NCBI GenBank assembly: GCA_964545885.1
Contig: CAZJHG010000005.1
Span: 1-53,617 of the forward strand
Reading direction: 5' to 3'
DNA length: 53,617 bases
From: an uncultured Muribaculaceae bacterium
GTDB lineage: Bacteria; Bacillota_I; Bacilli_A; RF39; UBA660
Made by a program: the position numbers and the translations under genes. Position 1 is the stretch's first letter. Each line of letters opens with the position of its first letter. A model generated the notes under the pieces. That model did not search any database. It was not told the DNA's origin and saw only the letters and a program-made list of their open reading frames with translations. Shown piece by piece: positions 12,030 through 42,262 of the stretch.

Positions 12030-12070
12030 AAATTAAAGCTTATGCTAGAAGGAGTTATGTTTGGGCATAT

Positions 12071-12203
12071 AGCTAGCGCCAGGTCCTGAGGGATGACGAG
12101 GTTAGTAGTTTTCGAAAGATTCGGCGGGTGCTACTACGTAGAAGTGGAAACGTTAGGATTATCTAAAAAATAAAATCAACATTATAACAAATGATAATTC
12201 TCC
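12071..12203 (+). ncRNA. glmS ribozyme (GlcN6P-activated)
   Basis: AGCGCCAG...GACGAGG...TTTTCGAAAGATTCGGCGGGTGC core directly upstream of glmS. Expected cleavage is at A12075/G12076. Confidence 0.9.
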
Positions 12204-12230
12204 ATATTTTTTTATATGGAGGAAATTTTT

Positions 12231-14015
12231 ATGTGTGGAATAGTGGGATATATAGGAAGAGATAAATGTATTCCGAAAATAATGAGTGGTTTGGAATCAC
12301 TTGAATATAGAGGTTATGATAGTGCTGGAATAGCTTTTGTAACTAATAAAGGTGTGGAAATAGCAAAAGAAGAGGGGAAGTTAGAAAATCTAAAAACAGA
12401 AATAGATTATTCTATTAATAGTACGATAGGTATAGGTCATACTAGATGGGCTACTCATGGTAGTCCAAGTGATATTAATAGTCATCCTCATAAGATAGGA
12501 AAAGTTACAGTAGTTCATAATGGTATTATAGAAAATTATAATGAATTAAGAAAGAAACTAGATAATTATCAATATAAAAGTGAAACTGATAGTGAAGTAA
12601 TAGCTGCTTTAATAGATATGCTATATGAAGATAAAAAAGATATGTTGGAAGTACTTAAAGTACTAAAAGACTACTTGATAGGTAGTTATGCTTTAGGAAT
12701 ATTAATAGATGGTGATGATAGAATATATGCTATTAGAAAAGATAGTCCTTTAATAATAGGAGTATCTGCTGATGGTAATTATATAGCTAGTGATGTGCCA
12801 GCTATATTAGAATATACTAATATGTATTATTTATTATTAAATGATGAATTTGCAATACTTGATAAAGAAGATGTTACTATATATGATAATAATGGTAATA
12901 TAGTTAGTAAAAATTTAAATATATTTGAATCAAGTAAAGAATCAGCTATGAAAAATGGATATGATCATTATATGTTGAAAGAAATATATGAACAACCTCA
13001 AGTAATTATGGAAACTATTAGAGAGTATATTTATGATAAGAAAGAGTTCTATAATAAGATGACTGGATTAGAAAAATATACTGGAATAGATATAGTAGGT
13101 TGTGGTAGTGCTTACCATGTTGGATTAGTAGGTAAAAATTTGATACTTAAGTATTCTAATATACCAGTTAATGTTGATGTTGCTTCTGAATATAGATATA
13201 CAGAACATATTTATAGTAAGAAACATTTAATTATATTGATAAGTCAAAGTGGGGAGACTGCTGATACTTTGGCTGTTTTAAGAAAAGCTAAAGAAAGTAA
13301 GATAGATACATTAGCTATTGTTAATGTAGTTGGTTCTTCAATAGCTAGAGAAGCTGATAAAGTAATGTATATTAAAGCTGGTCCTGAAATAGCCGTTGCT
13401 ACTACTAAAGCTTATACTTGTCAGTTAATGATTTTGTCTTTAATAGCAGCTTATTTAGGTATTAAGAAAGGTTTATTAAAAGAAGATGTACTTAATGAAT
13501 ATTATAAAATAGAAGATTTATCTATAAATAGTTTTCAAACTATAAAAAATGTGGAGAAAATAGCTAAGAAGATACATAAAAAACAGCATATTTTTTTCTT
13601 AGGAAGAAAAGTAGACTATGCACTTAGTTTAGAAGCATCTTTAAAATTAAAAGAGATAAGTTATATACATAGCGAGGCTTATGCAGCTGGGGAATTAAAG
13701 CATGGAACTATTAGTTTAATTGAAAAAGGAACACCAGTAATTAGTATTATTACTGATGATGATATTAAATTTAAGACCCTTAGTAATGTTAAAGAAGTAT
13801 GTGCTAGGGGAGCTTTAAGTATTATTATTACAAATGATTCTGAACTTGATGAGGGTATATATGATTATTTGGTAGTTATTCCTAAAGTACATGAATTAAT
13901 TAGTCCTATTCTTGTTATTATTCAGTGTCAATTACTTGCTTATTATGTAGCTAAATATAATGGATGTGATATTGATAAACCAAGAAATTTAGCTAAAAGT
14001 GTTACTGTTGAATAA
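12231..14015 (+). CDS. glmS: glutamine--fructose-6-phosphate aminotransferase
   Basis: True start MCGIVGY at 12231 (GGAGG at 12218-12222). LEYRGYDSAG, GHTRWATHG, SQSGETADT and PRNLAKSVTVE motifs. Confidence 0.97.
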   Translation: MCGIVGYIGRDKCIPKIMSGLESLEYRGYDSAGIAFVTNKGVEIAKEEGKLENLKTEIDYSINSTIGIGHTRWATHGSPSDINSHPHKIGKVTVVHNGIIENYNELRKKLDNYQYKSETDSEVIAALIDMLYEDKKDMLEVLKVLKDYLIGSYALGILIDGDDRIYAIRKDSPLIIGVSADGNYIASDVPAILEYTNMYYLLLNDEFAILDKEDVTIYDNNGNIVSKNLNIFESSKESAMKNGYDHYMLKEIYEQPQVIMETIREYIYDKKEFYNKMTGLEKYTGIDIVGCGSAYHVGLVGKNLILKYSNIPVNVDVASEYRYTEHIYSKKHLIILISQSGETADTLAVLRKAKESKIDTLAIVNVVGSSIAREADKVMYIKAGPEIAVATTKAYTCQLMILSLIAAYLGIKKGLLKEDVLNEYYKIEDLSINSFQTIKNVEKIAKKIHKKQHIFFLGRKVDYALSLEASLKLKEISYIHSEAYAAGELKHGTISLIEKGTPVISIITDDDIKFKTLSNVKEVCARGALSIIITNDSELDEGIYDYLVVIPKVHELISPILVIIQCQLLAYYVAKYNGCDIDKPRNLAKSVTVE

Positions 14016-24970: not shown

Positions 24971-25034
24971 TTGCTGAAAATAATTATAGATGTAATTGAC
25001 AAATTCTAAATAATGAGTTAGTATTTAGTTAATT

Positions 25035-25231
25035 CGATGAGGAAGAACACGATTATTAAGGTGCTTGCTTTTAGAGAACTAGTGGTTGGTGAAAACTAGT
25101 AGAAGGCTTAATGATTACTATCTTCTGAGAGGTTTAATAAAACCCGGTTAAATTTTAGACCGTTATCTAAATTAAGTTAAATAAAGGATGGTACCGCATA
25201 ACTTTGCTCCTTGCAAGTTGTGTGGTTTTTT
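25035..25231 (+). promoter_or_regulatory. T-box riboswitch (Thr)
   Basis: Stem I with AGAGA and GGTGAAA loops; candidate specifier ACT at 25117-25119; T-box AAGGATGGTACCGC at 25184-25197; antiterminator partner GCTCCTT at 25206-25212; terminator CCGCATAACTT...AAGTTGTGTGG followed by a T-run. Confidence 0.88.
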
Positions 25232-25253
25232 AATTTATTAGGGAGTTGATGTA

Positions 25254-25484
25254 ATGGATCGAACCGAGGAAATTGAAACCTTGAAAAAGGTTGTGTTTAA
25301 TTTAAAATTACAGATGGCTATGAAGAAAAATAATAATGATGAATTATTGGAATTGTCTGAAAAAGCTCAAATAATACAAAGAAGAATTGATACATTACAA
25401 AAGGAAATTGAAGAATCTAATGGACAAGTTGGATTTGCATTTTCAGAATTGATAGATGTAACAAAAGTAAAGAAAGGAAGATAA
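25254..25484 (+). CDS. small coiled-coil protein between the T-box and thrS
   Basis: GGGAG RBS; helical heptad pattern. Its 3' end (AAAGGAAG) supplies the thrS RBS, and thrS starts 2 nt after its stop. Confidence 0.65.
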   Translation: MDRTEEIETLKKVVFNLKLQMAMKKNNNDELLELSEKAQIIQRRIDTLQKEIEESNGQVGFAFSELIDVTKVKKGR

Positions 25485-25486
25485 AA

Positions 25487-27253
25487 ATGGTAAATTTTAA
25501 AGAAGATGAAATATTAAACAAATTAAATCATAGTTGTGCACATTTACTTGCACAAGCAGTAAAACATTTATATCCACAAGCTAAGTTTTGGGTAGGACCT
25601 GTTGTAGAAGAAGGTTTTTACTATGATATTGACTTAGGTGATGATGTTTTAGTAGAAGAAGATTTAGAACGTATTGAAAGAGAAATGAAAAAATGTTCTA
25701 AGTCTGCTAAAAATATTATAAGAAAAGAGATTTCTAAAGAAGAAGCTTTGGAAATGTTTAAAGATGATGAATACAAGATAGATTTAATTGAAAGAATGGA
25801 TGAAGAAGAAGGACCAATATCTTGTTATCAACAAGGAGATTTTACTGACCTTTGTAGAGGCCCACATATGGAAAATACTAAAGAAGTTAAGTATTTCAAA
25901 TTAATTAAATTTAGTGGTGCTTATTGGAAAGGCGATGCTTCTAAGAAAATGCTTCAAAGAATATATGGAGTATGTTTTCCTTCACAAGAAGAACTTGATG
26001 CACACTTAAAAGAATTAGAAGAAATGAAATTAAGAGATCACAGAAAAATAGGTAAAGACTTAGAAATATTTATGATAAGTGATTTAGTAGGTAAAGGATT
26101 ACCTATGTATTTACCAAATGGATACTTAATTTGGGACTTATTAGAACAATATATTAAAGGTAAAGAAAGAAATTTAGGATATTTACATGTATTAACTCCA
26201 CCATTAGGAAATGTAGAGTTATATAAGACTTCAGGACACTGGGATCATTATAAGGAAAATATGTTCCCTATGATGAAAGTTGAAGATGAAGAGTTTGTTC
26301 TTCGTCCAATGAATTGCCCTCATCATATGGTTGTATACAGTAATAATGTACATTCATACAGAGATTTACCTATTAAGATCGGTGAAATAGCTAGAGATTG
26401 TCGTTTTGAATCAAGTGGTTCATTAAAAGGTATTGAAAGAGTTAGAACATTTTGTCAAAATGATGCTCACTTATTTGTAACTCCAGAACAAATTCAAGCT
26501 GAATTTAGTGAAGTAGTTAATTTAATACTTGAAGTTTACAAAGAACTAGGAATTAAAGATTATAGATTTGAATTATCTTTAAGAGATCCTGAAGATAAAG
26601 TTAAGTATTATCCAGATGATGAAATGTGGAATAATGCGGAGAATACATTAAGAAAAGTATTAGATGGTTTAAATTTAGATTATGTAGAAAAAATTGGTGA
26701 AGCAGCATTCTATGGACCAAAACTTGATGTTCAAGTTAAACCAGCTGTTGGACCTGAGTATACATTATCTACTTGTCAATTAGACTTCTGTTTACCAATG
26801 CGTTTTGATTTAGGATATATTGATAATGAAGGTAATAAACAAACTCCAGTAGTATTACATAGAGCAATATTTGGAAGTATAGATAGATTTATGGCTTATT
26901 ACTTAGAAGAAACTAAAGGATATTTACCTGTATGGTTAGCTCCTAAACAAGTTGAAGTTGTACCAGTAAATATTCAATATCATGAAGAATATGCTAGGGA
27001 AATTTATGAAGCTTTAAAGAAAGCTGGTTATAGAGTAGCATTAGATGATAGAAATGAAAAACTAGGATATAAATTAAGAGAAGCTGTTATTAAAAAGATT
27101 CCTTATATGTTAATATTAGGACAAAAAGAAGTTGATGAAAAATTAGTTTCTTATAGAAGAGCTGGCAGTGAAGAAACTACTACTGTAACTTTAGAAGAAT
27201 TTATTGAACTATTAAACGATGATATTCGAAATAAAGTAAGATATGATAAATAA
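25487..27253 (+). CDS. thrS: threonyl-tRNA synthetase (no N-terminal TGS domain)
   Basis: HSCAHLLAQAV, DLCRGPH, RDHRKIG, RPMNCPHH, EAAFYGPKLD and HRAIFGSIDRF motifs. Confidence 0.97.
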   Translation: MVNFKEDEILNKLNHSCAHLLAQAVKHLYPQAKFWVGPVVEEGFYYDIDLGDDVLVEEDLERIEREMKKCSKSAKNIIRKEISKEEALEMFKDDEYKIDLIERMDEEEGPISCYQQGDFTDLCRGPHMENTKEVKYFKLIKFSGAYWKGDASKKMLQRIYGVCFPSQEELDAHLKELEEMKLRDHRKIGKDLEIFMISDLVGKGLPMYLPNGYLIWDLLEQYIKGKERNLGYLHVLTPPLGNVELYKTSGHWDHYKENMFPMMKVEDEEFVLRPMNCPHHMVVYSNNVHSYRDLPIKIGEIARDCRFESSGSLKGIERVRTFCQNDAHLFVTPEQIQAEFSEVVNLILEVYKELGIKDYRFELSLRDPEDKVKYYPDDEMWNNAENTLRKVLDGLNLDYVEKIGEAAFYGPKLDVQVKPAVGPEYTLSTCQLDFCLPMRFDLGYIDNEGNKQTPVVLHRAIFGSIDRFMAYYLEETKGYLPVWLAPKQVEVVPVNIQYHEEYAREIYEALKKAGYRVALDDRNEKLGYKLREAVIKKIPYMLILGQKEVDEKLVSYRRAGSEETTTVTLEEFIELLNDDIRNKVRYDK

Positions 27254-30679: not shown

Positions 30680-30708
30680 TTTATATAGAATATGGGAGTG
30701 TGGCAGGT

Positions 30709-33700
30709 ATGAAAATAATGTTAATGGATGCAACCAAATTAGTTAATTTAATTTTACCTAAAGAAGTGTTTGGTAACTATTGGATTGTTAATGCCAACAA
30801 AGATAATTTAGTTAGTGTACAAGCCATTGATAATAGTTGGGTTTTAAAAAGCAATAGTGAAGTAAAGGTATTTAGAAATGGTACAGCTGTTGATGAAGCG
30901 TTGATGGAAAGCGAGAAATTTTATACCTTAAAAAATATTTTAACTGGTGAAAGCTATGTTGTTTATACTTGCCCGGTATATGATGAAAATTCTCTTCAAT
31001 TAAGACTTAATTATAACGTTAAAGCAAATGGTTCATCTTGGTATATAGGAAATAATGGATCACAGGATAATGCTTCTAATTTTCCTAATGTTATATCTTA
31101 TGAGCAACCTGGTATTGCTAGAAACCAATTAAAAATTGTTTTTAGTGATGAAAAATATGCTGTTTATAATTTAAATACTTCATTACCAATGTATGTTAAT
31201 GGAATTCCTTGTGAGGCTTCTGAATTAAGAAATGGCGACAATATATTTATGTTAGGATTTAAGTTATCTATAATTAATGATATCTTTTATGTAAATAATC
31301 CTAATAAGTTAGTAAAATTTGATTCTCAAGTATTTGCAATAAGACAACTTCCTACTTTGGATTACACTAAGATATCTAGTGAAGCGGATCCTGTTATAGA
31401 GATGTATAAAAAAGAAGATTATTTTTTAAAGCCGCCAAGATTCGATGAAAAAATTGAAGAAAAAGTTTTAGTAATCGATCCACCTCCAGCAGCTCAAAAT
31501 CAAGAAGAGATGCCAGCTATATTTACGATGGGTTCTATGATGATGATGGGTATGAGCTCTGTAATGTCTGGAATTATAACTCTTACAAATGTACTTAATG
31601 GAACTACAGAACTTAGTACTGCATGGTCATCTTTACTAACTGCAGCTGCTATGCTTACTTGTATGTTGATACTTCCTACTTGTAGTAAAATGTATAATAA
31701 ACATAAAAAGAGAATGTATGAAAGAAAAAGACAAGCAACCTATAGTATGTATGTTAATAAGAAACGTGAAGAATTCTTAACAGAAATGAAAAAAGAACAA
31801 CAAATTCTTATTGATAAATATATTCCTTTAAAAGATGTTGGAGATATAATACTTTATAAAAAACGTAATTTATGGGAGAAAAATACAAGTGATTATGATT
31901 TCTTATCATTGAGATTAGGTATTGGTTCTATTCCACCATTTTTTAAGATAAATTATCCAGACGAGCATTTTTCAATGGAAGATGAAGATAATTTGATGGG
32001 ATATTTAAGAGAACTTGAAAAAGAAACAAGTATGCTTGAAAATGTTCCAGTTACATATTCTTTTGTTGATAAATATATTACTGCTGTAATAGGTCAAAGA
32101 AATGTTACTAATCCTTTCTTAAGAGGATTACTATTACAGATATTTGCTTATCACGGATATGATTCATTAAAAGTTTGTGTTTTTACTAATAAAGAAAATG
32201 CAAAGTTTTGGGAAGATGTTAAAGATTGTCCTTATTTCTGGAATGATCAAAGAACATTAAGATTTTTTGGTACTAATAGTGATGAAATTAACCAGATTAG
32301 TTCTTATTTTGAAGAAATGTTAAGTTCTTTAAAGGAAGCTAACGAGGATAGAGGTAATTCTACTTCTAAAGAACCGTTAAAACTTAGTACTAGGTATTTG
32401 ATTATAACTGATGATATTGATTTGGTTAGAAATGTTAGTTTAATTCGTTCTTTAATTGAATCAGAGAGTTATATTGGTATGAGTTTAATTATATTTACTG
32501 AGAAATTAAATTCTTTACCTAATGAAGTTGAACATTTTATTAGTGTAGATGAACGTTCTGGTGGAGTATTTGAACGAGTTCTTACTGGTAGTAAAAGAAT
32601 TAATTTTGTACCTGATTTTATGTTTGGTTCTCTTGATAAATATGCATATGTTGTTTCTAATATTCCAATAGCCTTAAATGGTGGTAAATTCCAATTACCT
32701 GGTTCATATTCTTTCTTGGAAATGTATAATGTTTCTAATGTTAACCAATTGAATGCTCTTTCTAGATGGAAGGAAAGTGATCCTATTAACTCTCTTTCTG
32801 CACCAATAGGAATTAATGAATATGGAGATTTGTTTAAGTTGGATTTACATGAAAAGTCACATGGACCACATGGTTTAATTGCTGGTATGACTGGTTCTGG
32901 TAAGTCAGAATTTATTATTACTTTCATATTAAGTACTGCTCTTAATTACCATCCTTATGAAGTACAGTTTGTATTAATTGACTATAAAGGTGGTGGTTTA
33001 GCTGGTGCTTTTGAAAATAGAGAAACTGGTCTTAAATTACCACATTTAGCTGGTACAATAACAAACTTAGATGTATCAGAGATTAATCGTTCTTTGGCTT
33101 CTTTACAATCTGAGTTAAAAAGAAGACAAGCTATATTCAATAAAGCTAGAGATAAAGTTGGAGAATCAACTATAGATATATATAAATATCAGAGATTGTA
33201 TAGAAATGGTCAAGTTGATAGTCCTGTCGCACACTTATTTATTGTTTCAGATGAGTTTGCGGAGTTGAAAGCACAACAACCTGATTTCATGAACGAACTT
33301 ATTTCAACTGCACGTATCGGACGTTCATTGGGTGTTCACTTAATTTTGGCAACACAAAAGCCAAGTGGTGTAGTTAATGATCAAATTTGGTCAAACTCTA
33401 AATTTAAAGTATGTTTAAAAGTTCAAGATAGGTCAGATAGTCAAGAAATGATAAAAAGACCTGATGCTGCTTCTTTAAAAGAAACTGGAAGATTCTACTT
33501 ACAAGTTGGTTATGATGAATACTTTGCTTTAGGTCAGTCAGCTTGGACAGGAGCTCCTTACTATGAATCTGATGTAAGAAAGAAAAAAGTTGATAATACT
33601 ATAACTTTTGTTGATAATTTAGGAATGCCTTTTAAAATTGTTGATGATGGTAAACAAAATTTTACTGGTGTATTAAAGGGTGAAGAGTTGCCAAATATAA

Positions 33701-35367
33701 TGAAATATTTAGTTGATATAGCTAAAAAAGAAAACATTAATATTAAACAACTATGGTTAAATTCTTTGGCTCCTGTAATATTTATAGATGGTTTAAAAGA
33801 AAAATATAGTTATAAAAAAATCGATTGTGATATTAACCCAGTAGTTGGTGAGTATGATGCTCCAAATTTACAAAAACAAGGATTACTTACTTTACCGATT
33901 ACCCAAGGTGGTAACTGGATAATCTATGGTATGGCAGATAGTGGTAAAGAAGAAATGATTAACTCTTTAGTTTATTCATGTATTACTACATATTCACCTT
34001 TAGAGTTAAATATGTATTTGTTAGATTTTGGTGCTGAAACTCTTAAGATGTATAGAAAAGCTCCTCAAGTTGGTGATGTCATTTTACAAAATGATGTTGA
34101 TAAAGTTACTAACTTATGGAGAATGCTTCAAGAAAAGATTGCTAGTCGTAAAAAAATGTTTGCTGATTATGGTGGAGATTATATTTCTTATTCTAAAGCA
34201 ACAGGTAAAGTATTACCAAATGTTGTAGTTATAATTAATGGTTTTGAACTATATAATGAAAACTATGGAGATGCTACATTTGATTTACTGGCAACTATAA
34301 CTCGTGATTGTCAGAAATATGGTGTTTATTTTGTAATGACTTCTAATACTGCTAATGGTATTAGATCAAGGCTTGCTCAATACTTACCAAATCATCTAGT
34401 ATTCCAAATGAATGATAAATATGATTATAGTTCACTTCTTGGAAGAACGAAGTTAGAGCCTTCCGATATATCTGGTAGAGGTTTGGCAAAACTTGATGCT
34501 ATTTATGAATTTCAAGCAGCTGTGCCTACTGAGAAAGAAAACTTAAATACAATGGTTTTAGAAAAGATTAAAACTTTATGTGAAAAATATCCTAATGGTG
34601 CTCCGAAAGTACCTGTGTTACCTGAAGTTGTTACTATAGCTGATGTTGCTGATTCTGTAAAAGGTCTTGCTTCTGTACCAGTTGGTATAGAAAAAGAATC
34701 TTTGAAAGTAAGATGTTTAGACGTTACAAAGAGTCTTGTTCATGTTATTACAGGAATGGAATTTGGCGAAATAAAGACATTTGGTGGTATGTTTATTAAA
34801 GAAATTTCTAATATTGTAGGTAAGAATTGTTACGTATTTGACTTAGAAAAATTATATAAAGATTATTCTTCTAATGTATCTTATTATGATACAAATATTT
34901 TAGAAGAATTTAAAACGTTTGGTAAATTTGTTTTTGATTCATTTACTAAATTTAAAGAAGCTGGTTTTGATGCTAGTGCATTAAAGGATCAAGGAGAGTA
35001 TGTTTGCTTTATAGTTGGTATTGAAAAATTCAAAAATATCTTAGGCTCTGAATTTGAAGGTGCTTATGGTGGGTTATTGACTATGATTAAGTCGATGCCA
35101 AAATTCCATTTTATTTTAATCGATACATGTGATAACTTTAAAAAGCGTGAATTTGATTCATGGTATAAAGATACTATATCTGGTACTAAGGGATTATGGA
35201 TTGGTAATGGAATGGGTACTCAATATACTCTTAAATCAACATTATCAACTAGAGTATTAGGGGCTAAGGTCGATAAGAATTTCGGTTATTATGTAGATGG
35301 AAACACAACTGTTTTAGTTAAATATATTTCTGAAGTTGGTGAGGAAGAAGTTTATGAAACTTTATAA
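30709..35367 (+). CDS. essC: type VII secretion ATPase EssC/YukB
   Basis: Likely start ATG 30709. Two N-terminal FHA-like domains (LPKEVFGNYW; MYVNG...LRNGDNIF), two TM segments, DLHEKSHGPHGLIAGMTGSGKSE, DYKGGG, SDEFAELK, RIGRSLGVHLILATQKP. D2 (GMADSGKE) and D3 are degenerate. Confidence 0.95.
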   Translation: MKIMLMDATKLVNLILPKEVFGNYWIVNANKDNLVSVQAIDNSWVLKSNSEVKVFRNGTAVDEALMESEKFYTLKNILTGESYVVYTCPVYDENSLQLRLNYNVKANGSSWYIGNNGSQDNASNFPNVISYEQPGIARNQLKIVFSDEKYAVYNLNTSLPMYVNGIPCEASELRNGDNIFMLGFKLSIINDIFYVNNPNKLVKFDSQVFAIRQLPTLDYTKISSEADPVIEMYKKEDYFLKPPRFDEKIEEKVLVIDPPPAAQNQEEMPAIFTMGSMMMMGMSSVMSGIITLTNVLNGTTELSTAWSSLLTAAAMLTCMLILPTCSKMYNKHKKRMYERKRQATYSMYVNKKREEFLTEMKKEQQILIDKYIPLKDVGDIILYKKRNLWEKNTSDYDFLSLRLGIGSIPPFFKINYPDEHFSMEDEDNLMGYLRELEKETSMLENVPVTYSFVDKYITAVIGQRNVTNPFLRGLLLQIFAYHGYDSLKVCVFTNKENAKFWEDVKDCPYFWNDQRTLRFFGTNSDEINQISSYFEEMLSSLKEANEDRGNSTSKEPLKLSTRYLIITDDIDLVRNVSLIRSLIESESYIGMSLIIFTEKLNSLPNEVEHFISVDERSGGVFERVLTGSKRINFVPDFMFGSLDKYAYVVSNIPIALNGGKFQLPGSYSFLEMYNVSNVNQLNALSRWKESDPINSLSAPIGINEYGDLFKLDLHEKSHGPHGLIAGMTGSGKSEFIITFILSTALNYHPYEVQFVLIDYKGGGLAGAFENRETGLKLPHLAGTITNLDVSEINRSLASLQSELKRRQAIFNKARDKVGESTIDIYKYQRLYRNGQVDSPVAHLFIVSDEFAELKAQQPDFMNELISTARIGRSLGVHLILATQKPSGVVNDQIWSNSKFKVCLKVQDRSDSQEMIKRPDAASLKETGRFYLQVGYDEYFALGQSAWTGAPYYESDVRKKKVDNTITFVDNLGMPFKIVDDGKQNFTGVLKGEELPNIMKYLVDIAKKENINIKQLWLNSLAPVIFIDGLKEKYSYKKIDCDINPVVGEYDAPNLQKQGLLTLPITQGGNWIIYGMADSGKEEMINSLVYSCITTYSPLELNMYLLDFGAETLKMYRKAPQVGDVILQNDVDKVTNLWRMLQEKIASRKKMFADYGGDYISYSKATGKVLPNVVVIINGFELYNENYGDATFDLLATITRDCQKYGVYFVMTSNTANGIRSRLAQYLPNHLVFQMNDKYDYSSLLGRTKLEPSDISGRGLAKLDAIYEFQAAVPTEKENLNTMVLEKIKTLCEKYPNGAPKVPVLPEVVTIADVADSVKGLASVPVGIEKESLKVRCLDVTKSLVHVITGMEFGEIKTFGGMFIKEISNIVGKNCYVFDLEKLYKDYSSNVSYYDTNILEEFKTFGKFVFDSFTKFKEAGFDASALKDQGEYVCFIVGIEKFKNILGSEFEGAYGGLLTMIKSMPKFHFILIDTCDNFKKREFDSWYKDTISGTKGLWIGNGMGTQYTLKSTLSTRVLGAKVDKNFGYYVDGNTTVLVKYISEVGEEEVYETL

Positions 35368-35370
35368 TTG

Positions 35371-35403
35371 AGAAAAGATGACTTTTGTTATCTTTTCTTT
35401 TTT
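35371..35403 (+). terminator. essC terminator
   Basis: AGAAAAGATGAC/GTTATCTTTTCT stem followed by a T-run. Confidence 0.75.
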
Positions 35404-35410
35404 AGTTTCG

Positions 35411-35439
35411 TTGACTTTGAATTTGAATTAGAGTATTAT
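35411..35439 (+). promoter_or_regulatory. sigma-A promoter of the esaB-WXG-WXG unit
   Basis: TTGACT-N17-TATTAT. Confidence 0.6.
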
Positions 35440-35444
35440 GTTTA

Positions 35445-35509
35445 TATAAGGGTATAGTGAGTAGTTAAGGGGAATTGGTCGGAAATGGTAATGCTATCAT
35501 ATATTCTTA
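35445..35509 (+). promoter_or_regulatory. putative structured 5' leader, copy 1
   Basis: TAAGGGTATA (35447-35456) pairs with TATATTCTTA (35500-35509) over 10 bp including two G-U pairs. The motif is shared with 41462-41534. Confidence 0.45.
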
Positions 35510-35539
35510 AATCTACTATTTTTAATAGGAGGGTTTATT

Positions 35540-35797
35540 ATGAATAATAATAAGGTCTGTGTAGATTTGATTGTACCTGGCATTGAAGAAAGATACAATG
35601 TTTTTATTCCTGTTAATAAGAAGACTATTGAAACTATATTCCTATTAAATAAAGCTATTAATGATATGACTAGTGGAGCGTACGCCATGAATGAACATTT
35701 ATCATTAATAAATGCTGATGACGGAACTGTTTATGATGTTGATAATACTTTTTTGGAAAACAACATTTTAAATGGTGCAAAACTAATATTATTATAG
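35540..35797 (+). CDS. esaB: EsaB/YukD ubiquitin-like T7SS accessory protein
   Basis: 85 aa with V.VDLIVP....YNVFIP.NK.I..I..LL...L.E.NILNGAKLILL ubiquitin-like pattern; next to essC. Confidence 0.8.
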   Translation: MNNNKVCVDLIVPGIEERYNVFIPVNKKTIETIFLLNKAINDMTSGAYAMNEHLSLINADDGTVYDVDNTFLENNILNGAKLILL

Positions 35798-35807
35798 GAG
35801 GTGGATT

Positions 35808-36107
35808 ATGAATAATTTTGAGTATGCACAAGCTGGTATGGAGGAAGCTATTAGCGATTTAACTGCTGCTAAAACTAAAGCTTCTGAAAGCTTTGATGAA
35901 ATTAAAGCAGAGTTAAGAGATAATTTATTATCTGCAGGTATGAGCGGTTCTACTGCTGATGTTCTTTTAGAAACTTTTGAAAAAGAAGTAACTGAACCTG
36001 CTGAAAACTATTTACTAAATGCTGAACACTTTATTAAGCAAAATACAGAAGTTAAAGCTAAAATGGACGATAATAGTTCAACTAATATTAGTATTGCTTC
36101 TATGTAA
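35808..36107 (+). CDS. WXG100-like protein, MSG variant
   Basis: 99 aa helical hairpin with central LSAGMSGSTADVLLETF. Confidence 0.65.
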   Translation: MNNFEYAQAGMEEAISDLTAAKTKASESFDEIKAELRDNLLSAGMSGSTADVLLETFEKEVTEPAENYLLNAEHFIKQNTEVKAKMDDNSSTNISIASM

Positions 36108-36147
36108 TATTTATCTATGATTATTTAGTGAAAGGAATGAATAAGAA

Positions 36148-36456
36148 ATGAAAGAAAGCTATAATGCTGAAGCTGTTACAGCTGCTTTAAAAAATGCTGC
36201 TGCTAAAATTGATGCTACATGTACAGAGTTTAATAATCAACGTGAGAAAGTATCTGCTCAATTAAACGCATCAGGTTCTGCAATGGGTGGAACACTTGGT
36301 CAAGCTGCAAATGCTGCTTTTGAAAATGAGAATGTAGCTGCATTCGATAATTTGAAAAAGAATATTAACTCATTTATGAGTAGATGTGAACAAATTGCTA
36401 GAAATACTGCTTCTACTGAAGATGCAACTGCAGCAACATATTCTCAACAAGTTTAA
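36148..36456 (+). CDS. WXG100-like protein, MGG variant
   Basis: 102 aa helical hairpin with central GSAMGGTLGQAA...F..LK.NI..FM. Confidence 0.7.
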   Translation: MKESYNAEAVTAALKNAAAKIDATCTEFNNQREKVSAQLNASGSAMGGTLGQAANAAFENENVAAFDNLKKNINSFMSRCEQIARNTASTEDATAATYSQQV

Positions 36457-36464
36457 TAAATAAG

Positions 36465-36485
36465 TACTGCGTTAATGACGCAGTA
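36465..36485 (+). terminator. terminator after the esaB-WXG pair
   Basis: TACTGCGT-TAATG-ACGCAGTA. Confidence 0.7.
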
Positions 36486-36548
36486 TATTATAAGTAAAAG
36501 AAAATATTCTTTTATTTATAATATACTTGGAGTACTGGAGGGATAGGT

Positions 36549-36848
36549 ATGGATTATGATGTAGCTGCTAATTTGAGTGAATTAGAGAATTTGGCTGATG
36601 GAATAAAAGAAAAAAGAAGTGAATTAGCTACTTGTATTAATAATATATATAGTGTGATTAACAATATGCAGAATTCTTGGCAAGGGGAAAGTTATAATAC
36701 CTTTAGTAACGAATGTTATAGTTATGCTTCATCTTTAGAAGCTTTAGTTACACTTCTTGATGCATTTGAAAAATTATTTAGAGATGAAGTGTATGGTAAT
36801 GCGAAAGATTTTATAGACGCTTGCGATACTGCTTTTAGCGAATTTTAG
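36549..36848 (+). CDS. WXG100-family T7SS substrate
   Basis: 99 aa with central MQNSWQGESYNTF. Confidence 0.88.
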   Translation: MDYDVAANLSELENLADGIKEKRSELATCINNIYSVINNMQNSWQGESYNTFSNECYSYASSLEALVTLLDAFEKLFRDEVYGNAKDFIDACDTAFSEF

Positions 36849-36866
36849 TGGAAGGATTGATTTTTT

Positions 36867-38258
36867 ATGGCTGTTGATATACCTACAGAAGTGGCTTTTG
36901 ATTATACCCCTGGAGAAAGCACTACTACGGCTACTGCTCCTACTATTGTTATACCTCCTCAAGTTTCATTGAGTTCTGGCAAAGTAGAAATAATTAATAC
37001 TACTGAGTTAACAAGTTATGCTCAGGAATTAGATGATGCTTTTACAGAATTTGGTAAGGTTTTAGCTGAAGTTAATGAACTTGTTAATACATCAGTAAAC
37101 GTTACTCCTGATAGTAGTGTTTATGGAGCTTATGGAGCTAAACTTTTAAATTTATGGAATAATAACACATCTACTTTTAGTGATTTTAAAACTAATTTTC
37201 AAGCTTGGTCACAGGCAGTTGCAGTTATTTCGAAAAATAATGAAATTACTGAAGATTTAGTAAAAACTATATATGCAAATAGAACTACAGGAGCTGATTT
37301 AATGGCTTTGGATGGCACTTCTTATGTCTCAGAATTGAGAGAAGAAGCTGTTGATGCTTATAACGCAAAAGCAGTAGAGCAATCGAATGCTGCTGATGCT
37401 GAAAGTGTTGGCTGGAGCACTTATGAAGATGCTGCTGCATATAATTCAGGAGTAATGACAGAGTCAGAGTTTGCTAGGCGTTGTGGGGTGAATGGTTATA
37501 CATGTACGGATGCTAATGGTAATTCTGTTACTGTAAATAGTTATCAAGAGTATTTGGATGTTATGTACGAAAAGTATGGACCTGGTTCTGTATATGCTAA
37601 TGGAATCAACGAAACAATTGAAATTGACTCAGGGGATTCTTCTGCTTCCTCTGATAATTATTTTATTCAAAGAGGTGACACTTGTATTGTGCATGGTCAA
37701 GAGGTTAAATTCTTTGCTCGTGACGGCTCTTATAATTATTATGTAGATGCAAATGGAAATATTTTAATAGATGCTGATGGTGGTTTGCGTTCTCTTGATT
37801 GTAATGAAAATACGTTTAATATAAATTATTTAAAGGATTTAGAAGGTGGTTTTTATGGTGCTATTACTACAACTCAATCTGGTGCTTCGTCAATGGGATT
37901 GCCTACTGAAGTAACTGGTAGTAATACATCTTATGATATGTACTCTTCACCTGATGAATATGTTGATCCAGCGACTATTTCTCTTGAAAATGCTCGAACT
38001 TATACTACAAACAATGGTTTTAGTGAAGATTTATTGAGCGGTGAAGATCTTCCTGAAGTATTGGTATTTGATCATAATTTAGATGGACCTGGTTGGGGAT
38101 TTGCTCACCCTGATATAAAAACAGCTTCTAATGGTCAAGTAACATTAGTTTATGATGAACGTTCTGGTATGTATTATCAACTTGATGATAGTGGTACATA
38201 TATTAGGGATGCTTATGGATATACACCAGAAGATTTGGCTAAATATGATGTAGAGTAG
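36867..38258 (+). CDS. putative T7SS effector with VYG-variant WXG-like N-terminal domain
   Basis: SSVYGAYGAKLLNLWNNNTSTFSDFKTNFQAW helical domain followed by acidic beta-rich domains. Confidence 0.7.
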   Translation: MAVDIPTEVAFDYTPGESTTTATAPTIVIPPQVSLSSGKVEIINTTELTSYAQELDDAFTEFGKVLAEVNELVNTSVNVTPDSSVYGAYGAKLLNLWNNNTSTFSDFKTNFQAWSQAVAVISKNNEITEDLVKTIYANRTTGADLMALDGTSYVSELREEAVDAYNAKAVEQSNAADAESVGWSTYEDAAAYNSGVMTESEFARRCGVNGYTCTDANGNSVTVNSYQEYLDVMYEKYGPGSVYANGINETIEIDSGDSSASSDNYFIQRGDTCIVHGQEVKFFARDGSYNYYVDANGNILIDADGGLRSLDCNENTFNINYLKDLEGGFYGAITTTQSGASSMGLPTEVTGSNTSYDMYSSPDEYVDPATISLENARTYTTNNGFSEDLLSGEDLPEVLVFDHNLDGPGWGFAHPDIKTASNGQVTLVYDERSGMYYQLDDSGTYIRDAYGYTPEDLAKYDVE

Positions 38259-38393
38259 TTTAAACTATTTTATTTTTGAATGATGATGTGCTTTTGGTAC
38301 TTGTTGGTTTTAAATTCTAAAATGATATTATTTAATGATTTTTGTCATTTTGGATTGATTAATATTAAATAAATAGTTTAATAGTTTTGGAAG

Positions 38394-38654
38394 GTGATAG
38401 AAATGGCTATGGTTTATGATAACGGAGAGAAAGTAGTAAGTGAATTGAATTCTTTATCTGTTAGTTTGAATGGCTTAAAGTCTGTTTGTGGGGATAATCT
38501 ATTATTTATGGACAATGATAATTGGGCAAAAGTTAAGGAATACATAGAAAAGATGCAAGTAGAAATAAAAGACATTAGTGGTGAATTAAAAAGTATTCTA
38601 AATGAAATGAAAGTTATCAGCAAAGAAGTTGAAGAAGTAAAAGATAGGAGTTGA
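38394..38654 (+). CDS. small helical-hairpin protein (putative Lap-type partner)
   Basis: 86 aa, two amphipathic helices around GDNLLFMDNDNW; stops 4 nt before the next large gene. Confidence 0.55.
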   Translation: MIEMAMVYDNGEKVVSELNSLSVSLNGLKSVCGDNLLFMDNDNWAKVKEYIEKMQVEIKDISGELKSILNEMKVISKEVEEVKDRS

Positions 38655-38658
38655 GTAT

Positions 38659-40965
38659 ATGGCGAACGTTGTAAAATATAATCGTGCTAATAAAAAGTCT
38701 GCTATTTCTAATATTTCTTCTTGTAACGAACAGATAGGAACAGTTAAGGAATATTTAAGTAGCTTTCATGATGATGCTGTTAGTGAATATTCCACTTGGA
38801 ATAATTATATTACTCCTATTACTCATTATGTTCTGGAAAATGGAGACGAGAAAACTCTTTATTATTCCAGATTTAATAATTGTACTTTTAGCACTTATAA
38901 TAGTGCATACAATAGTGCAGATCAAAGTTGTAGAAGATATAAAGATAATTTTACTTCTAAACTTTCATCATTTAGTGCAAAGTGTAACAAAATTTGTAAC
39001 AATGTTGAGACCTCATTAAAAAAAATTACTGATTGTTTAAATGCAATAGAAGTAGCAGCTGACGCATTTAATAATTCTAGTGTTAGTCTTTCTGATATTA
39101 TTGATAGTTTGGAAGGGGCTGGATTAGCTGATAATATTACGATTGAAACTAATGGAAATACTGAAATAGTTTATTATAATGTTTATGATAGTAATGGTGA
39201 ATTAGTTGGACGATTTACTATTGCAGAAATGGTTAACTCTTTTTATACATATGCGGGTTCTGCAATGTCTAGTGTTGTTTCGGCTAATGTATTAATAGAT
39301 GGGTATGACAATATGTCTGATGCAGAAAAAGATAGATATTTAAATAATCTAGTATCTGGTATTGGTAATAATGTTTATCAATTAATGGGTGCTGGTTTTA
39401 TGTCTGTAGCTGCTGAAGGAGATATAAAAGGATTATACGAAGCTGTGTATGGTAGTGGCACTTATGCTAGTTTAACTAGTGAATATGGTAGTTTATATGG
39501 AGACGATGATAATAACAAACTTAATTTATTAAGTTCGGCTGAAGTAGAAAAATGTGGTGGTTTCTTAACTGGTGGTGCTGCTATTGCGGCAAGTGCGGCA
39601 TATACATTAGGAGACAATTTATACTCTGATGAACAAGCTCAAGAAGCTAAGGAAAGAATAGCCGGATACGAAAATACAGCTAAGGATGAAAGTGAACCTG
39701 AGGTCGATGATGTGACTCCTTATACTGGTGATAGAGGTACCGGTGCTAAACCAACTCCTGACTATGGTGCAAGTGATGATGATATTGACACTTTAGAACC
39801 AGATGATAATTCAGATGCTGATGATATTTTAGATACTGATGATAAGGTTGATGAATTACCTGAAGAACCAGCAGAAGAAACTCCAAATGAGATGGATGAT
39901 AGAATAACTGAAGTTGTGGAAAGTTCTATTCCTGATACTCAAGAAGATTTAACATTGTCTAACGATGATATTGATGCAATGGCAAATGAAGAGTTCTTTA
40001 AAAATTATAATGGTGAGTCATTGACTGAACGTAGACAAGCTGATGTAGATGCGTTTGAAAATTTATATAATCAAGAAAATAAAGAAGAATTAGCTAATTT
40101 ATTTGAGGAGATAGGTTATTCTAGTGATGAAGTATCAGCTCTTATTGAAAATAAGGAACTTGGATTACAAGCTTATATGTTAAATTCTCAAAATAAGGAA
40201 ATGGCTGAAATAGCTAATAAGATTGCTGAGGATATGGGAGTAAATGATTTTGATACCGTATATGATGATGCTCCTAATTATAGTAATTTTAGTGATGGTG
40301 ATGTTCAAGCTGCATTGTCTGATATTTCTGGAAATGAATCTATTGCAGATGTAAAAAATAGCTTTGATACAGCTAAAAACTCATATATTGAATCTGTTTC
40401 AAAGGCAAATGATTCAATAGCTACTGCACAACAAGCTAAGACTAATTTAGAAACAGTAAAGGCCGAAATAGAGGCTCAGTCTGGTACTGATACAAATAAT
40501 TGGACTGATTCTCAAGTTGAAAAGTATAATAATGCAACACAATCTTATAATTCGGCAGTTGCTCAAGCAAATGAAGATGTCGCTGCAGCTGGAGAAGCTA
40601 AGAACAATTATATAGAAGCGAAGAATACTTACGAAGAAGCAAAAAATGAATTATATGATCAAATAAAAAAAGAAGTTCAAGGTAATGGTGGAGATGTTTC
40701 TTCGGATAATAATGAGAATGTTGAAAATAGTGGAACAGGTTCTTCTGATAGTGATATTATTGATGATTTCTTGAGTGCTACTAAGACAAGTGAAGATGTT
40801 AGTGATTCAAATAGTCAAGGACAAAATGATTATGACTCTGTTAACAATGCACAAGATAATAGTAACAATAGTAACAATAGTAACGATAATAGCAGTACTG
40901 AAAGTAATTCTTCAGAAGAAACTGAAAGTAATGATGATATTTTAAAACAATTTTTAGGTATGTAG
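38659..40965 (+). CDS. large acidic putative T7SS substrate (paralog of 45404-47539)
   Basis: Helical N-terminus, TIAEMVNSFYTY segment, GGAAIAA helix, D/E linker, conserved C-terminal helical domain, and tail motif D(I/L)(I/L)xxFL. Confidence 0.7.
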   Translation: MANVVKYNRANKKSAISNISSCNEQIGTVKEYLSSFHDDAVSEYSTWNNYITPITHYVLENGDEKTLYYSRFNNCTFSTYNSAYNSADQSCRRYKDNFTSKLSSFSAKCNKICNNVETSLKKITDCLNAIEVAADAFNNSSVSLSDIIDSLEGAGLADNITIETNGNTEIVYYNVYDSNGELVGRFTIAEMVNSFYTYAGSAMSSVVSANVLIDGYDNMSDAEKDRYLNNLVSGIGNNVYQLMGAGFMSVAAEGDIKGLYEAVYGSGTYASLTSEYGSLYGDDDNNKLNLLSSAEVEKCGGFLTGGAAIAASAAYTLGDNLYSDEQAQEAKERIAGYENTAKDESEPEVDDVTPYTGDRGTGAKPTPDYGASDDDIDTLEPDDNSDADDILDTDDKVDELPEEPAEETPNEMDDRITEVVESSIPDTQEDLTLSNDDIDAMANEEFFKNYNGESLTERRQADVDAFENLYNQENKEELANLFEEIGYSSDEVSALIENKELGLQAYMLNSQNKEMAEIANKIAEDMGVNDFDTVYDDAPNYSNFSDGDVQAALSDISGNESIADVKNSFDTAKNSYIESVSKANDSIATAQQAKTNLETVKAEIEAQSGTDTNNWTDSQVEKYNNATQSYNSAVAQANEDVAAAGEAKNNYIEAKNTYEEAKNELYDQIKKEVQGNGGDVSSDNNENVENSGTGSSDSDIIDDFLSATKTSEDVSDSNSQGQNDYDSVNNAQDNSNNSNNSNDNSSTESNSSEETESNDDILKQFLGM

Positions 40966-40983
40966 AATAATAGGAGGATTGAA

Positions 40984-41388
40984 ATGAAAGAAAAGTATTT
41001 ACCAATTGGAACAGTAGTTTTATTAAAAGGTGGAAGAAAAAGAGCTATGATTACTGGTTTCTGTTCTGTAGCTCAAGAAAATCAAGAAAAAATATATGAT
41101 TATAGTGGTTGTGTATATCCTGAAGGATATTTGAGTTCTAATCAAGTTTGTTTATTTGACCATGACCAGATTGAAAAAATATTCTTTTTAGGATATGAAG
41201 ATGAAGAAGAAAAGGCCTTTAAAGATAAACTAAATAAAATAGTTGCTTCTATTGAAGGTGGAGATAATTCTTCAGCTTCTGTTTCAAACGAAAGCATGGT
41301 TGATGAAAGTACTGGTACTGTTGCTTCTAATAATGTTGATGAAGAAACGGCTTCTTCTGGTACTTTTACGCCTTTTGCTAGTAATTAA
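40984..41388 (+). CDS. DUF4176 family T7SS accessory protein
   Basis: KYLPIGTVVLLKGG.K..MITG...YDYSGC.YPEG...CLFDH.QI.KI.F.GY. Confidence 0.92.
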   Translation: MKEKYLPIGTVVLLKGGRKRAMITGFCSVAQENQEKIYDYSGCVYPEGYLSSNQVCLFDHDQIEKIFFLGYEDEEEKAFKDKLNKIVASIEGGDNSSASVSNESMVDESTGTVASNNVDEETASSGTFTPFASN

Positions 41389-41461
41389 TTGATTTGGGTT
41401 GTTAATTTTTATTTATTTAAAAATTTAATGACAATAAAAAAAAATGATGTTATAATCATTG

Positions 41462-41534
41462 TTATAAGGGTATGATAATTGTTTAGGGGTGTTTGGAATA
41501 ATCAAGCATGTTTCTTTGATTTATATTCTTATAA
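41462..41534 (+). promoter_or_regulatory. putative structured 5' leader, copy 2
   Basis: Begins 5-6 nt after TG-T-TATAAT (41451-41456). TTATAAGGGTATGA pairs with TTATATTCTTATAA (41521-41534); inner stem AGGGG-TGTTTG / CAAGCA-TTTCT. Confidence 0.45.
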
Positions 41535-41556
41535 TAAATATTATGGAGGTGAAAAT

Positions 41557-41853
41557 ATGGCAAGTTCATTAATTATCGATACTGATTTAGTTAACACTTC
41601 TGGTAGTGGTATTAACGCTAGTGGTGTAAATTTCCAAAACGAAGTAGCAAGTTTTAAATCTCACGTTAGTGCAATTTTATCTATTTGGACTGGTGCTGAT
41701 GCTGATGAATTTGGGACTGTTGCTGAAGATGTAGCAGCTTTACTTGATAAAGCTTCTATTACTGTACAAGAAGTTGGTGAACATCTTGTTAACACAGCAA
41801 CTGCTATGGATCAAACAGTTGAAGAAAACAAAGGCAGAATGTCTGCTGTATAA
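41557..41853 (+). CDS. WXG100-family T7SS substrate
   Basis: True start ATG 41557 (GGAGGTG RBS). 98 aa with central ILSIWTGADADEF. Confidence 0.88.
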   Translation: MASSLIIDTDLVNTSGSGINASGVNFQNEVASFKSHVSAILSIWTGADADEFGTVAEDVAALLDKASITVQEVGEHLVNTATAMDQTVEENKGRMSAV

Positions 41854-41883
41854 GAATGAATATAAGAAAGGAAAGTGATTTCA

Positions 41884-42177
41884 ATGGCAGTTAATACTTT
41901 AGATTATGAATCATATAAAAGTGAGCATTCAGCTATTAATACATGCATCAATAATATTGAAGCTGAGTTGAATACTGCAAATACAAAATTAAATGAAGCT
42001 ACTGCTGATGCTTCAGGTCAATGGGCTTCTACTGATGTTGATGAATGGAATCAAATTTATAAAGATATAAACAGTAAGTTCGAAAGACTTCAAGCTTTAA
42101 TGCAAGCATCAGGAGTATCTGCAGAAGCTACACAAGCTACTGAAAGTGCTTATAGTGGTTTTACTACTTCTGCATAA
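41884..42177 (+). CDS. WXG100-like protein, WAS variant
   Basis: Start ATG 41884. 97 aa helical hairpin with central ASGQWASTDVDEW. Confidence 0.7.
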   Translation: MAVNTLDYESYKSEHSAINTCINNIEAELNTANTKLNEATADASGQWASTDVDEWNQIYKDINSKFERLQALMQASGVSAEATQATESAYSGFTTSA

Positions 42178-42212
42178 TTTTATGTACTACATTAAGTAGT
42201 ACATTGTAAATT
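42176..42212 (+). terminator. hairpin / terminator after the second WXG pair
   Basis: ATGTACTAC-ATTAA-GTAGTACAT core with outer AATTT/AAATT pairing. Confidence 0.55.
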
Positions 42213-42262
42213 ACTAAACACTTAGTGATTTACAATGGATTATTTAAAAAGGTGGTGTTTAT

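Follow-up and report, generated by a model that had tools for sequence, protein, structure and literature searches.

We analyzed a 53,617-nucleotide stretch of contig CAZJHG010000005.1 (assembly GCA_964545885.1), hereafter the window, in which two short operons of a type VII secretion system (T7SS) are each preceded by a promoter and a leader that carry the same sequence blocks. Judged from comparisons of sequence, this element is a genus-specific module of promoter and 5' untranslated region (UTR), found in the gut genus Candidatus Coprovivens and born from the 3' end of essC, the gene for the T7SS ATPase. The origin of the leader in essC coding DNA is well supported, and we regard it as highly likely. 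Somewhat less firmly, each unit of promoter plus leader of about 95 nt is probably a non-coding fossil of the 3' part of essC that has been kept as a promoter and structured 5' UTR. Both leaders are set in a T7SSb cluster flanked by thrS and a gene for a UvrD-like helicase. Leader 1 (class 1, before esaB) starts 78 nt past the essC stop codon, and leader 2 (class 2, before a WXG pair) lies approximately 6 kb downstream in the same locus. The two outer blocks of a leader can pair to form a helix that we call P1. The features on which the argument rests are as follows.

30700-35367, plus strand: essC, FtsK/SpoIIIE-type T7SS ATPase of 1555 aa (Pfam FtsK_SpoIIIE, E 9.5e-43)
35119-35323, plus strand: present-day essC tail (..IDTCDNFKKREFDSWYKDTISGTKGLWIGNGMGTQYTLKSTLSTR..), still coding and paralogous to the leader (nucleotide hidden Markov model, HMM, of out-of-genus essC tails, E 3.6e-18)
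35411-35439, plus strand: promoter 1, TTGACT-17-TATTAT (promoter scan; aligned, in other genera such as that of genome G166, with the VD...EYD codons of essC)
35445-35455, plus strand: leader 1 5' block TATAAGGGTAT, derived from WYK(S)V codons; 35447-35455 form the 5' strand of P1
35469-35489, plus strand: leader 1 central blocks GGGGAATTGG..GAAATGG, derived from (R)GIWIGNG codons; these form the apex of the 5' hairpin and in some lineages vary or are missing
35500-35509, plus strand: leader 1 3' block TATATTCTTA, derived from QY(T/I)LK codons; 35501-35509 form the 3' strand of P1
35540-35797, plus strand: esaB/YukD-like gene of 85 aa, first gene of unit 1 (orthologues adjoin essC in 32 genomes)
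41428-41456, plus strand: promoter 2, ATGACA-17-TG-TATAAT (-35/-10/TATAAG layout as in promoter 1 and in essC of other genera)
41463-41473, plus strand: leader 2 5' block TATAAGGGTAT
41486-41496, plus strand: leader 2 central block GGGGTGTTTGG; other species have GGGGTATTTGG, which equals essC GGTATTTGG (G-I-W)

The esaB name rests on context, because Pfam gives no match for the 85-aa protein.

To compare leaders across the genus, we fetched the orthologous upstream regions of 26 other species by anchoring on the EsaB and WXG proteins, and a covariance model was built from 25 leaders of both classes. In 150 other genera of the family, this model returns one weak match, and that match lies inside essC: it falls in coding sequence about 200 nt before the stop codon (GGTATAAGAGTGTAGTTAATAGTTCAAGGGGTATTTGGATTGG, encoding ..WYKSVVNSSRGIWIG..), and esaB directly follows essC there. 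The model also weakly matches the equivalent essC site in several Candidatus Coprovivens genomes, including positions 35163-35241 of the window. A nucleotide HMM of the class-1 leader likewise matches the essC tail, at an equal relative position, in at least 15 loci, and its best non-self match in its own genome is the essC tail at 35198-35254 (E 0.042). The search was also run from the coding side. With an HMM made from coding essC tails only, leader 1 ranks third in its own genome after two real essC tails (E 0.027); with an HMM made only from essC of other genera it is again third (E 0.032), the match starting inside the promoter at 35426. When it is run on the leaders only, the HMM of essC tails is collinear over the whole class-1 leader (HMM positions 3-87 versus leader positions 1-85) and scores up to 27.8 bits. 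Over 134 aligned nt, the leader matches G166 essC at 63% of positions, a similarity like that between essC tails of different genera (58%).

In class 1, promoter and leader line up collinearly with the essC codons VDxxKKxEYD-WYKSVVNS-RGIWIGNG-QYxLKST near the end of the gene, so that the blocks of the leader can be read as essC codons.

TATAAGRGT: (W)YKS
GGGG(A/T)RTTTGG: (R)GIW
GAAATGG: GNG
TATATTCTTAAATCTAC: (Q)Y(T/I)LKST

The initial annotation of this DNA, made from its letters and open reading frames, had taken the blocks common to two operons with unrelated first genes as a sign of an element that coordinates Esx expression. In our reading, such sharing is not evidence of a common regulator: the class-1 blocks are codons for conserved EssC residues, and both leaders would carry the blocks because both descend from essC coding sequence. 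The new cis-regulatory RNA proposed there survives as a conserved element, with its sharing between operons recast as common descent. An essC-derived open reading frame has not been retained. The frame in the window stops after seven codons (TAT AAG GGT ATA GTG AGT AGT TAA), the leader reading frame has no start codon, and its indels differ between species. Class 2 is linked to class 1 by the covariance model and has the same layout.

Two other sources of the resemblance were considered and rejected. Gene conversion between a leader and the live essC tail of the same genome would raise self scores above non-self scores, and they are not higher (permutation p 0.68). A second T7SS locus is present in the same genome as the window (G000, contig C2, approximately 13440-13984), where the essC tail reads ESWYLSNVNKNLGIWIGDG and an esaB paralogue overlaps its end; this locus has no leader and no embedded promoter motif. 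As a donor it was discarded, since its tail type differs (WYLSNVNKNLGIWIGDG) and the promoter motif is absent. A search for a solved EssC D3 structure on which to map the fossil found no sequence match in the PDB.

The resemblance between leader and essC extends into the promoter. In G166, essC reads GTTGAC-ATGCTTAAAAAAATG-GAGTATGAT-GGATGG-TATAAGAGTGTAGTTAATAGTT, encoding VDMLKKMEYDGWYKSVVNS, and the class-1 unit reads GTTGAC-TTTGATTTTGAATTA-GAGTATTAT-GGTTA-TATAAGAGTGTAGTGAATAGTT. The two have the same -35 sequence and the same 15-nt spacing, and their -10 sequences differ by one base, so that the layout common to leader and essC is GTTGAC-15-GAGTAT(T/G)AT-5/6-TATAAGAGTGTAGT(G/T)AATAGTT. Among 401 sampled genomes of the family, 10 contain the pattern TTGACA-N17-TAYGAT-N3-TGGTAY; they represent 7 genera, all other than Candidatus Coprovivens, and a control pattern has 0 matches. 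All 11 matched sites that were fetched lie in essC tails. We then compared loci anchored on esaB, a selection that is blind to the promoter. The essC gene carries TTGACA-17-TA(T/C)GAT in 6 of the 7 loci where esaB abuts essC and in 0 of the 7 loci that have a separate downstream leader, in which the -10 equivalent is TTTGAT (E-F-D). Because the loci are related, we attach no statistical test to this contrast and treat it as suggestive. A near-consensus promoter sequence embedded in the VDxxKKxEYD codons was seen at L088/L117 (the G166 essC tail), L031, L032, L179-L181 and L118-L127. An internal promoter within Staphylococcus aureus essC was considered as a precedent and rejected; the internal promoter mapped in that species lies between esxA and esaA.

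These comparisons are consistent with the following history. The 3' end of the ancestral essC would have doubled as the promoter and 5' UTR from which esaB and the WXG genes were expressed. In related genera, esaB comes directly after essC, and essC contains TTGACA-17-TATGAT at its codons V-D-x-x-K-K-x-E-Y-D, with W-Y-K-S-V-V-N-S, R-G-I-W-I-G-N-G and Q-x-x-L-K after them. In the ancestor of Candidatus Coprovivens, renewal of the essC end may have left this segment duplicated or displaced. The fossil resembles a mosaic of WYKSVVNS and QYTLKST tails. Of the two copies, the one upstream would have stayed coding and lost its promoter-like features, and the downstream copy would have lost its frame, become shorter and kept the regulatory job. 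The second leader could be either a second fossil of the essC tail or a copy of the first, and it appears to travel with its WXG module. A broader version of this idea, which is possible but which we offer only tentatively, extends to the whole family of small-genome gut Bacilli: the DNA for the final ATPase domain of essC would do two jobs, codons of the Walker B region (V-D ... E-Y-D) serving as a sigma-A promoter and the last 200 nt or so as the 5' UTR of the esaB/WXG substrate operon. Partial duplication would have split these jobs in Candidatus Coprovivens, and the non-coding copy, released from coding constraint, would then have acquired a helix at its 5' terminus and alternative pairings by which the synthesis of substrates is tuned or switched. 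Should the embedded promoter be real, T7SS substrate expression in the family would be wired into the ATPase gene, and the partial duplication would have resolved a conflict between the coding and regulatory duties of one piece of DNA.

The element is widespread in the genus and was found nowhere else. The covariance model finds it in 27 of 27 Candidatus Coprovivens genomes, with one or two copies in each and only at the two T7SS positions, and the addition of 55 esaB-anchored metagenomic loci gave 48 distinct class-1 leaders; conservation in orthologous leaders, for which the initial annotation had asked, is thereby documented. A pattern scan of one genome per species, covering 185,579 species, returned metagenome-assembled genomes of Candidatus Coprovivens plus two others. 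We regard the latter two as chance matches, as they fall in GC-richer coding sequence. Class 1 is present at full length in 23 of 27 species. Class 2 is present in about 16 of 27, most of which also have an orthologue of the WXG gene by protein search. L146, L173, L177, L040 and the four species with truncated leaders that are discussed below have lost or altered the central GGGG..UUGG block. One locus, L083 (G021:C29), has an intact class-1 leader in front of an esaB that lacks its first 19 or so codons, including GUAGAUUU, and contains an in-frame TGA; this esaB is probably a decaying gene. Another, L077 (G015:C81:3520-3612), has a hybrid leader whose 5' half resembles class 1 (TATAAGAGTATAGTGGAATAG) and whose 3' half resembles class 2, with both of the pyrimidine blocks (copies A and B) described below. 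Genome G015 also has a truncated esaB leader; therefore, the leader classes may have recombined.

Within the window, most of what the initial annotation had described can be seen in the sequence. The block TATAAGGGTAT is found at 35445-35455 and 41463-41473, and these are its only two exact copies in the window and in the whole assembly (1.54 Mb, 66% complete). Both promoters are present and of sigma-70 type, with 5-6 nt between the -10 box and the block. GGGG follows at 35469-35472 and 41486-41489, then TTGG, and TATATTCTTA comes next, at 35500-35509 and 41522-41531, the distance from the 5' block being 55 nt in the first copy and 59 nt in the second. As a bare 10-mer TATATTCTTA is not rare (32 matches with at most one mismatch versus 31.8 expected); its position is conserved in orthologues. 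The two blocks are complementary, and both the minimum free energy (MFE) and the centroid folds close a domain of 65-70 nt in each copy (folding z-score -1.76 in the first, -4.09 in the second). The domain ends 17 nt (copy 1) or 13 nt (copy 2) before the Shine-Dalgarno (SD) sequence. A covariance-model search assigns neither leader to an Rfam family, either at gathering score or at E values up to 10, which agrees with the earlier failure to recognize one, and the confinement of the element to the T7SS locus likewise stands. An alternative pairing of the 3' block with GTAGTTAAGGGG had also been put forward for copy 1. It is present in this species alone, the others carrying GTTGTGGGG or GTAATGGGG, and was rejected as species-specific.

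We next consider whether the leader acts as RNA. The P1 helix consists of UAAGRGURU paired with AUAUUCUUA. P1 pairs in 100% of 324 cells, and in the 48 distinct class-1 leaders it pairs in 425 of 432 cells (98.4%), so that the proposed helix is kept in 98-100% of cases. A role at the RNA level, in which a 5'-terminal helix and occlusion of the ribosome binding site (RBS) tune stability and translation, is plausible, and on our models the considerations for and against it are about evenly balanced. The strongest competing explanation is that the unit is a fossil without any RNA-level function. Selection would then act only on the promoter hexamers and the SD sequence, and the complementary blocks would be a by-product of ancestral codons (TAT-AAG-AGT-GT versus TAT-A(C/T)T-CTT-A) preserved by short divergence. 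As read in essC, TATAAGAGTGT and TATACTCTTA are already near-reverse-complements, and single mismatches in P1 are tolerated, both of which suit this explanation, as do the leader identity, the covariation result and the loss of the 3' block in four species that are given below. Against it, P1-like complementarity was not found in the coding essC tails outside the genus. Moreover, 13 of 18 P1 positions are invariant across the two paralogous classes, compared with 18-22% of synonymous third positions in esaB (mean pairwise identity 0.77), and more than 10 species, with EsaB proteins only 71-84% identical, share the same first 22 nt of the leader. By our own count, approximately 11 substitution events in P1 preserve pairing and approximately 6 break it, versus an estimated expectation of about 37% preserving. 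Finally, the leaders fold better than mononucleotide shuffles in 34 of 34 cases tested (mean z -2.3 and -2.1). On balance, we consider the absence of an RNA-level function rather unlikely.

Several observations nevertheless weigh against the reading of the leader as an essC-derived unit kept for its RNA structure. The direct match of class 2 to essC is weak, at 5.9 bits, although above all 30 shuffles. In G022, G006, G002 and G015, only the 5' part of class 1 remains, fused close to the SD sequence, with the 3' block and hairpin deleted. The transcription start of leader 1, at approximately 35444-35446, is placed from the -10 spacing only. Covariation, which the initial annotation had named as a test that could refute it, is lacking: P1 has 0 double-sided compensatory changes, no helix shows significant covariation, and the shuffle control is uninformative. 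A double swap in L146 (AAGAG to AGAAG and UUCUU to UUUCU) was rejected as an example of compensation, as the MFE fold of that leader does not contain the helix. Overall leader identity is 0.735, which is not above that of synonymous sites (0.65-0.77), and therefore much of the conservation could be short-time inheritance. When the window copies are folded together with coding sequence and compared to dinucleotide shuffles, the z-scores are only -1.42 and -0.34. In the second predicted hairpin of class 1, described below, the 3' strand of the helix is protein-constrained, and a synonymous change of Val GUA to GUC or GUU breaks a pair in 6 leaders without compensation. In Mycobacterium smegmatis, a double stem-loop in the esxB 5' UTR did not stabilize a reporter transcript (PMC11728522).

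Three further candidate features of the leader were examined. A helix P2 (GAUAG/CUAUC) looks plausible by eye in most class-1 leaders, is absent from the RNAalifold consensus and has no double changes; we set it aside as tentative. An upstream open reading frame starting from the AUG of GAAAUGG was rejected, as this AUG is missing in L006, L014, L021 and L023. The class-2 5' block resembles the CsrA consensus obtained by systematic evolution of ligands by exponential enrichment. A CsrA site was rejected on the grounds that GGA is not conserved, the 5' block varying among GGG, GAG, GGA and GAA, and that PF02599 is unmatched in five genomes, four of which are at least 93% complete.

In class 1, a second hairpin is predicted to lie directly 3' of P1 and to enclose the translation start. 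Its parts in leader 1 are listed here.

35509-35516, plus strand: AAATCTAC, derived from KST codons; 5' strand of the predicted SD/AUG hairpin
35527-35542, plus strand: SD AGGAGGG (35527-35533) and the esaB start codon (35540-35542), within the predicted hairpin
35561-35568, plus strand: GTAGATTT, esaB codons 8-10 (V-D-L); 3' strand of the predicted RBS-burying hairpin

The flank AAAUCUAC would pair with GUAGAUUU in esaB codons 8-10, and an inner predicted helix joins a U-rich spacer to AAU-AAU-AAU-AAA codons. P1 and the SD/AUG hairpin appear together in the MFE and centroid folds of four species, and the alifold consensus agrees. The SD/AUG helix has 97% of its cells paired, and 31 leaders form its outer part perfectly, while another 9 can do so with wobble pairs. 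In class 2, no consistent pairing of the SD sequence was found in alifold, MFE or centroid folds. Two metagenomic class-1 leaders, L137 and L141, have AAAUUUCCUU in place of AAAUCUAC. In L137, a local anti-SD hairpin joins UUUCCUU to AAGGAGG; AAAUUUCCUU pairs with AAGGAGG in both leaders, and therefore the RBS would be buried by a different route.

Taken together, the predicted structures suggest how a class-1 leader might work. Transcription would start at the 5' block or no more than about 2 nt from it, and the 5' block and pyrimidine block would form a P1 of 9-11 bp at the very 5' end of the mRNA, closing an imperfect hairpin of 65-75 nt. Such a 5'-terminal helix would shield the mRNA from 5'-end-dependent decay, because RNase J is present: each of five genomes tested has two TIGR00649 matches above cut-off. 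The SD/AUG hairpin would stack on this first one and hold back the initiation of translation. For class 1, we envisage a constitutive tuning device.

Class 2 differs in that its 5' block has a choice of partner between two pyrimidine blocks, which we call copies A and B, in mutually exclusive helices. The corresponding part of leader 2 is as follows.

41500-41521, plus strand: inner hairpin AATCAAG/CTTTGATT around a degenerate pyrimidine-block copy A; copy A is intact (CATTGTATTCTT) in most other species
41522-41534, plus strand: 3' block copy B (TATATTCTTATAA), 3' strand of helix P1B

Of the two, copy A is the homologue of the 3' block of class 1, and its helix with the 5' block (P1A) joins AAGGAUAUGAUG to CAUUGUAUUCUU and is 90% paired. 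Copy B occurs in class 2 alone, and its helix (P1B, 11 bp) is 98.9% paired and has no double changes. A class-2 switch between P1A and P1B is possible on these models. A more elaborate proposal is that the element is a dedicated riboregulator, in which a T7SS-linked protein or small molecule binds the purine blocks (UAAGRGU, AGGGG) or the pyrimidine blocks, flips the helices and couples WXG and EsaB synthesis to the secretion state. The two exclusive partners of the 5' block and the confinement of the element to T7SS operons would suit such a device. In addition, UUCUU in the 3' block has never been improved to G-C pairs, suggesting a sequence-specific or metastable role, and P1A has a covariation score of 0.242 versus 0.199 in shuffles, reached by 0 of 500, in a control that is prone to false positives with related sequences. 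On the other side of the account, copy A is degenerate in the species of the window, the central block is lost or changed in several lineages as noted above, the blocks are explained by codon ancestry, and neither CsrA, in the five genomes tested, nor any other binding partner was identified. We judge a dedicated riboregulator to be quite improbable. Least of all do we favor a reading at the DNA level, in which a repressor binds an imperfect inverted repeat over the transcription start and a second site 55-75 bp downstream: the 5' block does overlap +1, the blocks do match as an inverted repeat at 7-10 of 11 positions and the sequence is conserved beyond pairing alone, but in 26 of 36 leaders one position has stayed G:T, never having become symmetric (100% of cells pair as RNA, while 2-3 of 9 positions mismatch as DNA in most species), the block spacing of 55-78 bp and the copy A-B spacing of 13-23 bp show no helical phasing, and the locus contains no regulator gene, so that this reading is very unlikely.

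The preferred reading, a unit derived from essC and kept as promoter and 5' UTR, has partial parallels in known systems. The 3' ends of essC are known recombination hot spots (PMC4788903), and orphan C-terminal essC fragments lie downstream of essC in the T7SSb loci of group B Streptococcus, where they are ascribed to recombination at this site (Spencer et al. preprint, PMC9900821). As in those loci, an essC 3' piece here lies downstream of an intact essC and heads a downstream module. The streptococcal fragments, however, are annotated as FtsK-domain gene fragments, whereas the fossil described here is about 170 nt long, has no frame, is fixed genus-wide and corresponds exactly to a promoter and 5' UTR. 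In the literature, we found no report of an essC fragment serving as promoter or 5' UTR.

Polymorphic toxin genes offer a second comparison. In rhs and cdiA, a newly acquired 3' end takes the place of the previous one, which stays behind downstream together with its partner genes, so that orphan cassettes share with the present case a displaced old 3' end beside partner genes. The orphans keep toxin coding sequence and form a recombination reserve, whereas the relic here is too short for this and, at approximately 60-70% identity, too diverged. Bacillota also have 5'-terminal stabilizer stem-loops and SD-occluding leaders, such as those of aprE and ermC. The leaders studied here resemble them in having a predicted helix within a few nucleotides of the predicted 5' end, a host with RNase J and a second predicted hairpin over the SD sequence and AUG, and differ from them in that the leader sequence is conserved beyond the needs of a generic stem. 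Cis-regulatory Rfam families (riboswitches and the FourU and AilA thermometers) likewise place a structured 5' UTR upstream of the SD sequence. Thermometer models score 17-19 bits on the copy-2 SD region, against gathering scores of 60-81 (E 0.66-1.7).

If our reading is right, the coding end of one gene can give rise to the promoter and structured 5' UTR of its neighbor, and the leaders may be a sequence-level trace of T7SSb substrate modules having been stacked behind essC. They would also serve as a caution for the discovery of RNA motifs, in that leaders of unrelated genes may share long blocks through descent from codons and without a common factor.

The remaining features of the two units, and the hairpin between essC and promoter 1, are given below.

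35370-35399, plus strand: terminator-like hairpin 3' of essC, 13-bp stem and T run
36465-36485, plus strand: hairpin closing unit 1 (palindromic stem, reported on the minus strand)
41545-41559, plus strand: SD GGAGGTG and start codon of the WXG100-like gene
41557-42177, plus strand: unit 2, WXG100-like gene (98 aa) and 100-aa partner (Pfam WXG100 E 3.9e-5, below the curated cut-off)
42202-42237, plus strand: 16-bp hairpin closing unit 2

Each unit thus ends in a hairpin, as had been stated. The accompanying claim that each unit encodes a WXG pair holds in part: unit 2 has the WXG100 match just listed, albeit below cut-off, and the two genes of unit 1 (35808-36107 and 36148-36456, about 100 aa each) have no Pfam WXG100 match, which leaves their label unverified. 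The T7SSb cluster as a whole contains WXG100 genes, a gene for a 785-aa protein, essC, the esaB-like gene, genes for small helical proteins, genes for large putative substrates and DUF4176 genes.

Elsewhere in the window, the 516-nt gap at 24971-25486 upstream of thrS (25487-27253) has no match to the T-box or any other Rfam family at gathering score. The only Rfam 15 match in the window at gathering threshold is a glmS ribozyme-riboswitch (RF00234, 54.9 bits) at 12064-12209, which lies upstream of a 599-aa gene at 12216-14015.

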